From positions 6,015 to 70,014 of the forward strand of contig JAWODN010000119.1 of assembly GCA_046483285.1 (NCBI GenBank): a stretch of 64,000 bases of DNA, given 5' to 3'. A program made the position numbers and the translations under genes. The stretch is from Candidatus Aminicenantes bacterium. GTDB taxonomy: Bacteria; Acidobacteriota; Aminicenantia; Aminicenantales; Aminicenantaceae. The notes under the pieces were generated by a model that saw only the letters and a program-made list of their open reading frames with translations, was not told the origin of the DNA and searched no databases. Positions 25,925-32,824 of the stretch are shown here, one piece after another (the stretch's first letter is position 1; every line of letters begins with the position of its first letter).

Positions 25925-26802
25925 TGGAGCAATTGGAAACCTTGAGGAGAAGACTCCAAAGCGCCCGGGACCTTCACTCGGTGGTAAAAACCATGAAAAC
26001 CCTGGCCGCCGTCAATATCCGGGAATATGAACAAGGGGTGGAGTCGCTGAAAGATTATTTCCGCAGTATTGAAATGGGGCTGCAGATTCTCATGCGGAAT
26101 AAACCGGAAAGAATCCGGCTGGTTTCTCCTGAAAAGGAAGAGAAGCTGGGAGCGGTGGTCTTTGGTTCGGAACAGGGAATGGTGGGACAGTTCAACGAAA
26201 AAATCGCTGAATTCGCATGGAAACAGTTGAATGAGATGAAAGTTGAAAAGAAAAACCGGACCGTTATGGCGTTGGGCGGAAAACTCATTGGAAGGCTGGA
26301 GGCCTTGGGAGTTGAGGTTGAAGAGGCCATCCATGTTTTCGGTTCTATGGTGGATATCAATGAGGTCAACCAAGAAGTTTTGCTGAAAGTTCAAGAGTGG
26401 CGCCTGGAAAAAAAAGTAAGCCGGATCATTTTATTTTATAACCGTCCGGCTTCCGGGACCACATACACCCAGGCCATGCGCAAGCTGCTTCCTTTGGATG
26501 AGGAATGGCTTAATGACCTCGAAAGCAAGAAATGGCCCACTCATATGCTGCCTGCTTTTTTCATGGATTGGGATAAACTGTTTTCCGCTTTGATCCAGGA
26601 ATTCTTTTTTGTGACATTATATCAGGCTTCCGTGGAATCCCTCGCCAGCGAAAACGCCAGCAGGCTGGCTTCCATGCAGGCGGCGGAAAAAAACATCCAG
26701 GAGCGCCTGGATGAGCTCAGCCTTAAATATCAGCAGCAGCGCCAGCAATCCATAACCGCTGAGCTGCTGGATATCGTCTCAGGGTTCGAAGTGCTGTCGT
26801 GA
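25924..26802 (+). CDS. atpG: N-type ATPase gamma subunit
   Basis: 292 aa with 'ASENASRLASMQAAEKN' near the C-terminus, typical of gamma. It is the last ATPase gene. Confidence 0.85.
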   Translation: MEQLETLRRRLQSARDLHSVVKTMKTLAAVNIREYEQGVESLKDYFRSIEMGLQILMRNKPERIRLVSPEKEEKLGAVVFGSEQGMVGQFNEKIAEFAWKQLNEMKVEKKNRTVMALGGKLIGRLEALGVEVEEAIHVFGSMVDINEVNQEVLLKVQEWRLEKKVSRIILFYNRPASGTTYTQAMRKLLPLDEEWLNDLESKKWPTHMLPAFFMDWDKLFSALIQEFFFVTLYQASVESLASENASRLASMQAAEKNIQERLDELSLKYQQQRQQSITAELLDIVSGFEVLS

Positions 26803-27545
26803 GGGAAAAAACGGACAGAAAAAATATCCACATCGGGACCTCAGGCTGGCATTACCGGCATTGGAAAGGCCCTTTTTATCCAGAGGACATTCCGGATAAG
26901 GATCTATTGAAATATTACGCCCGTCATTTCCGGACGGCTGAAATCAATAATTCTTTTTACCGGGTCCCGGATGAAAAGACTTTGAAGCAATGGGTCCGGA
27001 CCGCCGGCGGGGGCTTTGTTTTTTCCGCCAAAGGCAGCCGCTATATCTCTCATATGAAAAAATTAAAGGATCCTCAAGAGCCTGTGAAAAAATTCATGGA
27101 TAAAATCAGTGTTCTGGGAGACTCTCTGGGCCCGGTATTGTTTCAGCTGCCTCCCCATTGGAGAAAGAACAGGGACAGATTGAAATCATTTTTGGAAGCT
27201 CTGCCAGAGGGTTACCGGTTTGCCGTTGAATTCCGGGACCCGGATTGGTTTGGAGATGATATCAACCGATTGCTGGAAAAACATCAAACCGCTTTCTGCA
27301 TATATGATTTCAACCGCAGGCGGTCCCCCAAGACGGTGACCGCGGATTTTGTGTATATCCGCCTGCACGGCCCGGACGGACCCTACGAAGGGAAATACGA
27401 CAATCAAACTTTGTCCGGCTGGGCCGGAGCGATTTCACAGTGGGAAAAACAAGGAAAAGAAATCTTTTGTTATTTCGACAATGACCAGGCCGGATTCGCA
27501 GCTGAAAACGCTGGGCAGCTTCAAAAAATGACAGGAGAGGAATAA
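26799..27545 (+). CDS. DUF72 (YecE/UPF0759) family protein
   Basis: 248 aa with N-terminal 'IHIGTSGWHYRHW...FYP' and 'YYARHFRTAEINNSFYR'. The GTG start overlaps the atpG stop (GTGA). Confidence 0.8.
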   Translation: MREKTDRKNIHIGTSGWHYRHWKGPFYPEDIPDKDLLKYYARHFRTAEINNSFYRVPDEKTLKQWVRTAGGGFVFSAKGSRYISHMKKLKDPQEPVKKFMDKISVLGDSLGPVLFQLPPHWRKNRDRLKSFLEALPEGYRFAVEFRDPDWFGDDINRLLEKHQTAFCIYDFNRRRSPKTVTADFVYIRLHGPDGPYEGKYDNQTLSGWAGAISQWEKQGKEIFCYFDNDQAGFAAENAGQLQKMTGEE

Positions 27546-27548
27546 AGC

Positions 27549-29276
27549 ATGCCGGTTCACAACAATGATATCGCCGAAATTTTCAATACCATCGCCGATC
27601 TTTTGGAAATCAAGGAGGCGAACCCTTTCCGGGTCCGGGCCTACCGGGACGCGGCACGCATCATCGGCGGCCTGTCCAAAAACGCCTCCGATTTGCTTGA
27701 AGAGGGAAAAGATTTATCTGAGCTGCCGGGTATCGGCAAAGACCTGGCCGGAAAGATCAAAACCATAATCAAATCGGGAACCCACCCGCTTCTGGAAGAC
27801 TTGAAACTGGAAATTCCAGAAGAATTAAGCGGATTGATGAAGCTGCAGGGACTGGGCCCTAAAAAAATCGCAGTTATTCACAACAAGCTGGGAATCAAAA
27901 CCGCCGGAGAATTAAAAAAAGCCGCCGAGGAACATAAGCTTCGCGATCTCACCGGGTTTGGAAAAACCACCGAGCAAAATATTTTAGAGGAGCTGGAACG
28001 GCAGGAGGATGAGCAGGAACATAAGCGGTTCAAGTTGTCTGCTGCCGAGCAAATGGTGAAACCTTATCTTGAGCATTTGAAAGGCGATAAAAAAGCCAAG
28101 GCGGTTGAAATCGCCGGCAGCTTCAGAAGAAGAAAAGAAACAGTGGGGGATATTGATATTCTGGCCGTGTGCAAGCGGGGATGCCGGATTATGGACCGTT
28201 TCACCGGTTATGAAGATGTGAAAAAGGTTGTTTCCAAAGGCGGCACCCGTTCGACGGTGCTTTTAAAAAGCGGCCTCCAGGTGGACCTCCGGGTGGTGCC
28301 CCAAGCGGCATTCGGCGCGGCGCTCCACTATTTCACCGGTTCCAAGGAACACAACATCGCCTGCCGGAAGATTGCGGTCAAGAAAAAGTACAAGCTGAAT
28401 GAGTACGGTGTTTTTAAAGATGACAAGCGGATCGCCGGGGGGACGGAAAAAGAAGTGTATGCCCGGATTGACCTTCCGTATATTGAACCCGAGTTGCGGG
28501 AAAACCGGGGAGAGATCGAAGCCGCCCGGAAAGACAACCTTCCCGGATTGATCACTCTGGATGATATCCGGGGGGATCTGCATGTTCACACCAAAGCCAC
28601 CGACGGCCGCTACAGCCTGGAGGATATGGTGCGGGCGTCTGAAGAAAAAGGATATGAATACGTCGCCATAACCGATCATTCACAAAAAGTTACGGTGGCT
28701 AAGGGCTTGGATTCCAAAAGGCTGCGGGAACAGATCGAAGAGATCGATAAAATTCAGGGTAAGTTCAAAAAAATCCGGATCCTCAAATCCATCGAAGTGG
28801 ATATTTTGGAAGACGGCAGCTTGGACCTTCCCGACGATGTTTTGAAAGAACTGGATTTCACCATCTGTTCCATTCATTATAAATTCAACTTTTCGCGGGA
28901 AAAACAAACAAACCGGGTTCTGAAAGCCATGGACAATCCTCATATGAATATTCTGGGTCATCCTTCCGGACGCATGATTCATGAAAGGAAACCTGTTGAT
29001 TTGGACATGGAAAAAATCATGCAGGCTGCGTCGGAGAGAAATATTCATTTCGAAATCAATTCCCATCCCGACCGGATGGACCTTAATGATGTGCACTGCA
29101 AGCTGGGGAAAGAAACCGGAGTGAAAATGGCCGTCACCACCGATGCCCACAGCAAGGATGACCTGGATTTGATCCGCTTTGGTGTCGGCCAGGCAAGAAG
29201 GGGCTGGCTGGAGCCGGAAGATGTCATCAACACTCTCCCCTGGAAAAAATTAAAAAAAAGGTTTGAACGGAAATAA
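27549..29276 (+). CDS. polX: DNA polymerase X family (Pol beta-like domain plus PHP phosphoesterase domain)
   Basis: 575 aa. The N-terminal '[32 protein letters not shown]' is typical of PolX. A nucleotidyltransferase region '[16 protein letters not shown]' is present. The C-terminal PHP domain has '[12 protein letters not shown]'. Confidence 0.85.
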
Positions 29277-31830: not shown

Positions 31831-31871
31831 TCGGCTAATGAGTCAGAACCGACTCATCAGACGAAGCCGAA

Positions 31872-31928
31872 TAAGATCCTCACGGCCTGCTTCGCAGGCC
31901 TCAGGATGACAGCGGAGCTGTCATTTTC
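31872..31928 (+). repeat. 57-bp double-hairpin element (copy A), terminator-like
   Basis: Identical 57 of 57 to 41907-41963. It contains a ggcctgc-ttc-gcaggcc hairpin nested in atcct/aggat, then gacagc-gga-gctgtc followed by ATTTTC. Both copies lie just 3' of plus-strand genes. Confidence 0.75.
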
Positions 31929-32011
31929 TAAGGTATAGGTCAGGCTTGCCTGGCCTGTTCACGGGCCGCGATCGCAATTTTTTTATGAATAAGCCAGGGG
32001 AATGAATCAGG

Positions 32012-32824
32012 TTGGATAAGGAGAAAACAATGCCGGAATTACCCGATGTGGAAGTTTTCAGACAATATATGGAGGCCACATCTCTGCACAAGAAAATAAC
32101 AGGCGTGGAGGTTGAAAATGAACGGGTCCTCCAGGATATCACTCCCTCCGGATTAGGTCAAAAGCTCAAGGGGCGCCTGTTCGAAAGAACCAGACGGCAT
32201 GGAAAACATATGTTCGCCTGTGCGGATGGGGAATTCTGGGTGATGTTCCATTTCGGCATGACCGGCTTTTTCAAGTATTTCAAGAATGAAGAAGACAAAC
32301 CGCCTCACGCCCGGGTGTTGTTTCATTTTGATAATGGATTTTGTCTGGCTTATGACAGCCAGAGGATGTTGGGGAAAATCAGGATCGTGGAAGACGCGGG
32401 GGATTTTATCCGGCAGAACGAATTAGGTCAAGACGCCCTGGGTTTGTCCTGGGACGCTTTTCAAAACCGGATGCATGGCCGGCGCGGCACGGTGAAAACC
32501 GCCTTGATGAATCAGAGCCTTATGGCCGGCATCGGAAATATTTACTCGGACGAGATTTTATTTCAAACCGGAATCCATCCTAAAACCCAAATGAACAATC
32601 TGAATGAAGGCCTTCTTAAAAAGATGCATGAGCACATGCAGAGGGTTTTGAAAACAGCCGTTGACAAAAAAGCGGATCCGGAGGAATTCCCGGATGATTT
32701 TCTGGTTCCACACCGGGGAAGCGGAAATAAATGCCCCCGCTGCGGCGGAGAGATAAAAAAAGTCAAAGTGAACAACCGGGGAACCTATTTTTGCCCGCAA
32801 TGCCAGCCGTCTCCTCATAGTTGA
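32012..32824 (+). CDS. formamidopyrimidine-DNA glycosylase / endonuclease VIII family (Fpg/Nei)
   Basis: 270 aa with the N-terminal catalytic 'MPELPDVE', an H2TH region and a C-terminal zinc finger 'CPRCGGEI...CPQC'. Confidence 0.85.
   Translation: MDKEKTMPELPDVEVFRQYMEATSLHKKITGVEVENERVLQDITPSGLGQKLKGRLFERTRRHGKHMFACADGEFWVMFHFGMTGFFKYFKNEEDKPPHARVLFHFDNGFCLAYDSQRMLGKIRIVEDAGDFIRQNELGQDALGLSWDAFQNRMHGRRGTVKTALMNQSLMAGIGNIYSDEILFQTGIHPKTQMNNLNEGLLKKMHEHMQRVLKTAVDKKADPEEFPDDFLVPHRGSGNKCPRCGGEIKKVKVNNRGTYFCPQCQPSPHS

Follow-up and report, generated by a model that had tools for sequence, protein, structure and literature searches.

A DUF72 gene linked to PolX, LigA and Fpg repair genes downstream of an N-ATPase operon in Candidatus Aminicenantes

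What does a protein family of unassigned function do when it is found, again and again, beside enzymes of DNA repair? The question is raised by a stretch of 64,000 nucleotides (nt) from a Candidatus Aminicenantes bacterium (contig JAWODN010000119.1; this whole stretch is referred to below as the window), in which an N-ATPase operon runs directly into a gene for a DUF72-family protein, followed on the same strand by genes for the DNA polymerase PolX, the NAD+-dependent DNA ligase LigA and the DNA glycosylase Fpg. The initial annotation had read these four genes as a complete short-patch base excision repair (BER) module, with DUF72 in the place of an apurinic/apyrimidinic (AP) endonuclease. Part of that description holds, as the repair cassette is conserved and its pathway complete on paper, and part does not, namely the role of AP endonuclease given to DUF72. 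The reading that we favour, with moderate confidence, is that of a conserved and self-contained short-patch repair operon with a PolX-LigA core, in which DUF72 would be a lesion- or end-processing enzyme outside the endonuclease IV (Endo IV) family, and which is probably co-transcribed with the N-ATPase genes.

The gene cluster and its products

The features of the cassette are as follows.

26799..27545, + strand: DUF72-family TIM-barrel protein, 248 amino acids (aa), GTG start (PF01904)
27549..29276, + strand: canonical PolX of bacteria, 575 aa, PHP domain C-terminal to a pol-beta-like core (Pfam, NCBIfam)
29290..31356, + strand: full-length NAD+-dependent DNA ligase LigA, 688 aa, ATG at 29290 (Pfam, TIGR00575, start from sequence)
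31357..32029, no strand: noncoding stretch between LigA and Fpg, read as an insertion, with 2.1 tandem copies of a 160-nt unit (repeat searches)
32030..32824, + strand: Fpg/Nei-family DNA glycosylase/AP lyase, 264 aa, closest to Fpg (MutM) (Pfam, motifs)

They lie in a region (17.5-35.7 kb) where a phosphoenolpyruvate synthase gene, the nine-gene ATPase operon, DUF72, PolX, LigA, a 673-nt noncoding stretch, Fpg and a carbon-nitrogen hydrolase gene follow one another, all on the + strand. The junction of atpG and DUF72 reads GTGA, the GTG start of DUF72 lying on the TGA stop of atpG with a 4-nt overlap, just as had been claimed. DUF72 and PolX are separated by 3 nt, and an AGGAGA sits inside the 3' end of DUF72. 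The start codons of LigA and Fpg were read from the sequence, overruling the TTG starts of the open reading frame (ORF) list: LigA starts at ATG 29290, preceded by AAGGAGGAG, and not at TTG 29263, and Fpg at ATG 32030 (MPELPDVE), and not at TTG 32012. The initial annotation had described a head-to-tail cassette with overlapping or near-overlapping genes; its four genes, their coordinates and their common strand stand, except that PolX and LigA do not overlap and are 13 nt apart. It had also placed an Fpg/Nei glycosylase behind a repeat zone, and this is where Fpg is found, after the 673-nt spacer with its tandem repeats.

To judge from their domains and motifs, PolX, LigA and Fpg look catalytically competent. 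PolX carries the Pfam domains HHH_8, HHH_5, palm, thumb and PHP, scores above the cut-off of its NCBIfam equivalog (NF006375, 541.7 vs 426) and has both the motifs of the catalytic Asp triad (GDIDIL and VDLRV) and the PHP motifs HVH, TDH and TDAH; it is 100% identical to an NCBI-named PolX of a Candidatus Aminicenantes metagenome-assembled genome (MAG). The ligase, in which Pfam recognizes the Ia, adenylation, OB, HhH and BRCT domains, shows the full Ia-NTase-OB-Zn-HhH-BRCT architecture, a KFDG adenylation motif and a Cys4 zinc motif, and scores well above the LigA cut-offs (TIGR00575, 780.6 vs 444; NF005932, 826 vs 369), while the LigB model stays far under its own. Fpg has the Fapy_DNA_glyco, H2TH and zf-FPG_IleRS domains, the N-terminus MPELPDVE (Pro-Glu) and a zinc finger of the form CPRC...CPQC. 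It stays just under the equivalog cut-offs (NF002211, 189.2 vs 212; TIGR00577, 185.4 vs 203.3), and is best described as an Fpg/Nei-family member closest to Fpg, whose substrate range is not assured. A reading of the cassette as a defence system was dropped, because a search of the PADLOC defence library gave no match for DUF72 and nothing meaningful for the other proteins.

Linkage of DUF72 with PolX, LigA and Fpg

The evidence that DUF72 belongs with these enzymes comes from its neighbourhood in other genomes, the conservation of which the initial annotation had suggested examining. A first survey was seeded with the window DUF72 protein and scanned one genome per species; the best 80 loci were retained (52-67% identity to the window DUF72, with MAG labels spanning many different phyla) and their flanks of 10 kb on either side were searched with the window's own proteins. 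PolX was found within 10 kb of DUF72 at 20 of these loci, LigA at 13 (46-69% identity) and Fpg at 10, and one or more of these genes were present at 28 of the 80 loci, on the strand of DUF72 in 27 of these 28. Of the 37 loci flanked on each side by 5 kb or more of sequence, 15 have at least one partner. An unbiased clustering of all flanking ORFs at the DUF72 loci likewise returned PolX, LigA and Fpg as the top recurrent neighbour families. Typically the partners are direct neighbours of DUF72, share its strand and lie 5-150 nt from it, and the observed frequency of linkage is about 50-fold above what random placement would give (some 0.5% for any one given gene, a rough estimate). The clustering is far beyond chance and recurs in many unrelated contigs.

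The linked genes are found in permuted orders and in several lineages. DUF72 may come first (DUF72-PolX-LigA, with or without a following Fpg; DUF72-Fpg; DUF72-LigA; DUF72-NAPRTase-PolX, where NAPRTase stands for nicotinate phosphoribosyltransferase) or may not (PolX-LigA-DUF72, with or without Fpg; Fpg...PolX-LigA-DUF72; LigA-DUF72-Fpg), and these arrangements are scattered over different branches of the DUF72 tree. Even at loci that lack PolX (L016, L011, L018), DUF72 is paired with Fpg or LigA. Contiguity that survives rearrangement is a classical sign of selection for co-expression, and since gene order changes from clade to clade while contiguity is kept, the arrangement argues for a functional link rather than for inherited synteny. 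A functional link of DUF72 to short-patch repair is well supported by comparative genomics.

The neighbourhoods were also viewed from the side of the partners. At 80 metagenomic PolX loci (47-62% identity to the window PolX), DUF72 adjoins PolX in four cases, LigA in eight and Fpg in two. Three look-ups centred on LigA (homologues at 65-70% identity) found PolX directly upstream in two and a 154-aa PolX remnant upstream in the third, with DUF72 absent from all three. Wherever PolX and LigA both occur, the order PolX then LigA is strictly kept, with a gap of 13-65 nt, and contigs matching in size supply many of the closest homologues of PolX and of LigA, which fits frequent co-location. PolX and LigA are the core pair, to which DUF72 and Fpg are frequent but not constant additions. 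The short protein upstream of LigA in the third look-up (L171, 5521-5985) has only the N-terminal HHH_8/HHH_5 part of PolX; it would be a PolX in decay or else an 8-kDa/HhH domain protein standing by itself.

Two further observations concern these neighbourhoods. A NAPRTase gene lies between or beside DUF72 and PolX in the Nitrospirota-labelled loci L001 (874-2430), L002 (10761-12320) and L005 (6455-8008), and also in L044 (3507-5078), an intriguing neighbour as NAPRTase is an enzyme of NAD salvage and the partner ligase LigA consumes NAD+. The cassette LigA proteins of L006, L012, L021, L028, L037 and L047, contigs with differing phylum labels, are 57-69% identical to the window LigA, which is above expectation for a housekeeping LigA compared between phyla; either the module has spread horizontally, as these values hint, or the labels of the MAGs are not to be relied upon.

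Literature searches (DUF72 with PolX; COG1801; YecE with endonuclease) returned no characterisation of the family and no paper on the linkage, and the association of DUF72 with these three genes seems to be undescribed.

The DUF72 protein and the readings of its role

The window protein is a full-length member of the family (PF01904, UPF0759), with a score of 240.4 bits where the cut-off is 25.3 and a match that spans all 217 profile positions (1-217), and it shares the fold of TM1631 and EF0366, two members of known structure. The label DUF72/YecE that it had been given is right as to DUF72 only, as the score with the YecE equivalog (NF007637) is 72.9 bits where the cut-off is 412. The initial annotation had also referred to a proposal that DUF72 resembles Endo IV, and correctly so: Konc 2013 advanced it from a binding-site comparison and a molecular dynamics (MD) model with Endo IV DNA, while stating that TM1631 "cannot be an endonuclease IV" and could be a different kind of nuclease (PMC3828134).

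Comparison with Endo IV itself gave no specific support. Pfam has no AP_endonuc_2 match for the window DUF72; hhalign of a DUF72 profile with Escherichia coli Nfo (identical in sequence to 1qtw_A) gave a probability of 0.1; and the top 50 Foldseek matches include neither Endo IV nor UvdE, listing instead rhamnose isomerase, GH5 enzymes and designed barrels. The likeness of the two folds is at the level of the superfamily only (xylose-isomerase-like) and is not specific. The polar residues common to the window protein, TM1631 and EF0366 (E48, K78, Q116, E144, R146, D170, R188, H190 and N228) are placed where the barrel strands end C-terminally, and comprise one His, two Glu and one Asp, whereas Endo IV uses five His, two Asp and two Glu. 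With so few conserved His, Asp and Glu residues, the nine-ligand trinuclear metal site of Endo IV cannot form. No metal is present in the DUF72 crystal structures 1vpq, 1vpy and 1ztv, and a sulfate occupies the conserved pocket of TM1631 (PMC3828134). At the level of conserved residues, the metal-ligand comparison speaks against an Endo-IV-type enzyme. Among the invariant aromatic residues are F53 and Y54, the counterparts of a Tyr-Tyr wedge that has been proposed in TM1631.

Nor is there a gap in the pathway for an AP endonuclease to fill. In bacterial PolX the PHP domain acts as a 3'-phosphatase, 3'-phosphodiesterase, AP endonuclease and 3'-5' exonuclease (PMC6616362); as it would supply both AP incision and 3'-end cleaning, Fpg, PolX and LigA are complete on paper, and the slot in which DUF72 had been placed is not empty. 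In the mechanism that we favour, which follows the established biochemistry of these enzyme families (excision of oxidised purines, in the case of Fpg), Fpg would excise oxidised bases and cut the strand by beta,delta-elimination, leaving a gap of one nucleotide between a 3'- and a 5'-phosphate; the 3' end would be cleaned by the PHP domain of PolX, which could also incise AP sites; the polymerase core of PolX would fill the one-nucleotide gap, and LigA would seal the nick. DUF72 would most likely be a further phosphoesterase, with a chemistry of its own, that processes DNA lesions or ends, creating or tidying nicks and gaps for PolX and LigA. Its linkage with PolX, LigA and Fpg suggests that it acts on the same repair intermediates, and its basic phosphate-binding pocket and invariant aromatics (F53, Y54) fit a phosphoesterase. 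We infer this order of enzymatic steps, as we do co-transcription and the catalytic role of DUF72. A more specific version can be held only tentatively: DUF72 may be a new type of TIM-barrel phosphoesterase, with a chemistry unlike that of Endo IV and UvdE, carried in a portable four-gene module of many uncultured, mostly anaerobic bacteria, and in the Aminicenantes it might be expressed with the N-ATPase in such a way as to couple ion or osmotic stress to repair.

Three other readings have to be set against the repair operon with a non-Endo-IV DUF72. That DUF72 is after all an Endo-IV-like, metal-dependent AP endonuclease supplying a missing incision step can draw on the published binding-site comparison and MD model and on the conserved linkage to PolX, LigA and Fpg; the near-zero profile match to Nfo, the poor conservation of metal ligands, the metal-free crystals, the verdict on TM1631 already quoted (PMC3828134) and the AP-endonuclease activity of the PHP domain (PMC6616362) make it unlikely. 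In the main rival to a role in repair, DUF72 would be an enzyme acting on small molecules and having nothing to do with DNA (for instance an isomerase or hydrolase for sugars or nucleotides, within the xylose-isomerase-like superfamily), and would travel with PolX and LigA only as a fellow member of stress or dormancy islands. Its best structural neighbours outside the family are MbnB/DUF692, sugar epimerases and rhamnose isomerase, its recurrent genomic neighbours include baeRF, USP, HPF-CSD, NAPRTase, TreT/TreZ/GH57 and pfkB, and the window is rich in ion- and osmotic-stress genes. Yet no metabolic family recurs at more than 7 loci, as against 20, 13 and 10 for PolX, LigA and Fpg; it is the repair genes that directly adjoin DUF72 on the same strand at gaps of 5-150 nt; the pairing with Fpg or LigA persists at the three loci without PolX; and an independent association with polB2 and SRAP genes has been reported (PMC11791011), all of which leads us to regard a small-molecule role as somewhat unlikely. 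The adjacency might finally be functionally meaningless, being chance or the inherited synteny of one lineage, as many of the clearest examples belong to uncultured lineages that are related to one another, and the link is missing from 52 of 80 loci in the DUF72 survey and from 76 of 80 in the PolX survey. This is highly improbable given that the genes remain contiguous and co-directional when their order is rearranged between clades, that the linked loci are spread over the DUF72 tree and many phylum labels, and that their frequency is so far (about 50-fold) above the rough random expectation of some 0.5%.

Several points nevertheless weigh against the reading of a conserved repair operon with a lesion- or end-processing DUF72. 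The majority of DUF72 loci (52/80) are without PolX, LigA and Fpg within 10 kb, and from the PolX side the link to DUF72, although above chance, is a minority arrangement (4/80). The surveyed loci are phylogenetically non-independent, and the taxonomic labels of MAGs are possibly unreliable. Fold searches fail to set nucleases apart, with MbnB/DUF692, the sugar epimerases and rhamnose isomerase scoring level with Endo IV or above it. As regards co-transcription, a sigma-70 promoter scan of 19.8-33.1 kb gave no more promoter-like matches than shuffled sequence does, and terminator-like matches in the same region were weak. The ligA gene is normally essential, and with such uninformative scans an internal promoter for it is possible.

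Coupling to the N-ATPase operon and comparison with known systems

The operon upstream of the cassette (20070..26802, + strand, gene order atpD-C-Q-R-B-E-F-A-G, with no gene for a delta subunit) consists of the following genes.

20070-21548, + strand: atpD (Pfam/NCBIfam)
21545-21931, + strand: atpC (Pfam)
21924-22268, + strand: atpQ/gene1 (ATPase_gene1 match)
within 22183-22563, + strand: atpR (PF12966)
22560-23276, + strand: atpB (Pfam)
23279-23554, + strand: atpE (Pfam/NCBIfam)
23524-24393, + strand: atpF (Pfam)
24368-25924, + strand: atpA (Pfam)
25924-26802, + strand: atpG (Pfam)

Its beta subunit, subunit c and AtpR score above the cut-offs of the NCBIfam "alternate F1F0" models (beta, 793.6 vs 752; subunit c, 160 vs 131; TIGR03165, 82 vs 55.5), and on sequence grounds the operon is a genuine N-ATPase by the criteria of PMC2881411. 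It resembles the N-ATPase operon atpDCQRBEFAG of Dibrova et al. 2010 (PMC2881411) in gene order and in the presence of AtpR and AtpQ, and differs from it in that, in the clade of the window, the 3' end is extended by three or four DNA-repair genes by way of a start/stop overlap. No such extension was found in the main text of PMC2881411.

The arrangement N-ATPase-DUF72-PolX-LigA is kept, usually with Fpg next, in contigs of close relatives (L166, L083/L084, L167 and L168) whose DUF72 proteins are 64-77% identical to that of the window. In L166, L083 and L167 the overlap of atpG and DUF72 reads ATGA, and internal ribosome-binding sites are conserved; L168 has a gap of 162 nt between atpG and DUF72 instead of an overlap. 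The junctions from atpG through LigA in the window are very short or overlapping, and no convincing + strand terminator lies between atpG and the end of LigA (scan of 19.8-33.1 kb). The conserved 4-nt overlap and the lack of a convincing terminator fit co-transcription and translational coupling, and in this Aminicenantes-like clade the cassette is probably co-transcribed with the N-ATPase operon. The fusion is restricted to that clade: L081 carries DUF72-PolX-LigA with neither an N-ATPase nor Fpg. N-ATPase-like genes are also found within 10 kb of DUF72 at L010, L012, L021, L063 and L077. About 1 kb downstream of the L081 cassette, in convergent orientation, lies a MutY-like gene (15455-16528; HhH-GPD and NUDIX_4 domains).

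The spacer between LigA and Fpg is not shared by the relatives L083 and L167. Its tandem repeat (31469-31801; 2.1 copies of the 160-nt unit) is flanked by related short motifs of the GTCAT...GGGATC type, and the spacer motif has no further occurrence within the window. An Rfam search of the spacer gave nothing near threshold. The ORFs within it are taken as spurious, because they have no Pfam matches and lie in tandem repeats. As Fpg starts only 10 nt past LigA in L083 and L167, the repeat zone is to be seen as a later arrival: the 673-nt spacer was, on this comparison of sequences, inserted secondarily into an operon whose four genes originally stood together. The repeat may be a MITE-like element (miniature inverted-repeat transposable element). 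Beyond fpg the relatives carry a P-type cation ATPase gene that overlaps its 3' end (L083, 15320-17998; L167, 12828-15497), so that their cassette is flanked by two ion pumps; the window has the carbon-nitrogen hydrolase gene (32999-33925) there instead.

Elsewhere in the window, a baeRF-family protein is encoded at 5055-6206 and a sigma-54 response regulator at 6315-7796, along with three antiporter subunits of the Mrp/Nuo type (8181-13074); further on come a trehalase-like GH15 enzyme (42109-43905) and an Na+/H+ exchanger (43979-45160). Genes for baeRF, USP, HPF-CSD and trehalose enzymes are recurrent near DUF72 at unrelated loci as well. With the Mrp-like antiporter subunits, the N-ATPase, the Na+/H+ exchanger and the trehalase-like GH15 enzyme, the window is rich in ion- and osmotic-stress functions, and a stress regulon common to the N-ATPase and repair genes is plausible. 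An RfaH/UpxY-like NusG paralogue (33817-34401, under the equivalog cut-offs) lies upstream of genes for 6-phosphogluconate dehydrogenase and glucose-6-phosphate dehydrogenase, a block that it may serve as a specialised antiterminator.

How does the cassette compare with repair systems already known? The window PolX is like the PolX of Bacillus subtilis and Thermus thermophilus BER in having a pol-beta core with an intact Asp triad together with the PHP His/Asp motifs, and the logic is shared, with 3' cleaning and AP incision by PHP, gap filling, and sealing by an NAD+ ligase (PMC6616362, PMC3479172); the difference is that in the window the genes stand in one operon with LigA, Fpg and DUF72. 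In Bacilli the neighbours of PolX are ZapA and MutS2 (PMC9226535). No link to DUF72 or LigA is found in the main text of that survey of PolX neighbourhoods, nor is one mentioned in the accessible part of its supplements. Pairs of PolX with a ligase are known from it, with an ATP-dependent ligase in Methanomicrobia and with LigD in Alphaproteobacteria (PMC9226535), and the window is alike in having a family X polymerase beside a ligase, an arrangement which by analogy implies that gap filling would be coupled to sealing. It differs in that the ligase is the NAD+-dependent LigA with its full housekeeping-type architecture. DUF72 genes have themselves been found enriched near operons of the translesion polymerase polB2 and near SRAP damage-response genes, again beside a specialised DNA polymerase, and the function of DUF72 was still unassigned in 2025 (PMC11791011). 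This association lends independent support to a role of DUF72 in DNA damage.

While the component families are known, what appears to be new is a putative BER or gap-repair operon that has an uncharacterised TIM-barrel partner and is fused to an N-ATPase operon. DUF72 (UPF0759; YecE in E. coli) is very widespread, and its three crystal structures are some twenty years old, with the function unassigned; earlier suggestions of a part in DNA repair are confined to computational papers of 2013 and 2025. An operon that is rearranged but stays contiguous makes the function of this orphan family directly testable, the question being which damaged-DNA intermediate it handles for PolX and LigA. PolX and LigA are shown to be a conserved gene pair in a large bacterial group, and in the Aminicenantes-like clade genes of DNA repair are physically coupled, quite unexpectedly, to the operon of a sodium pump.

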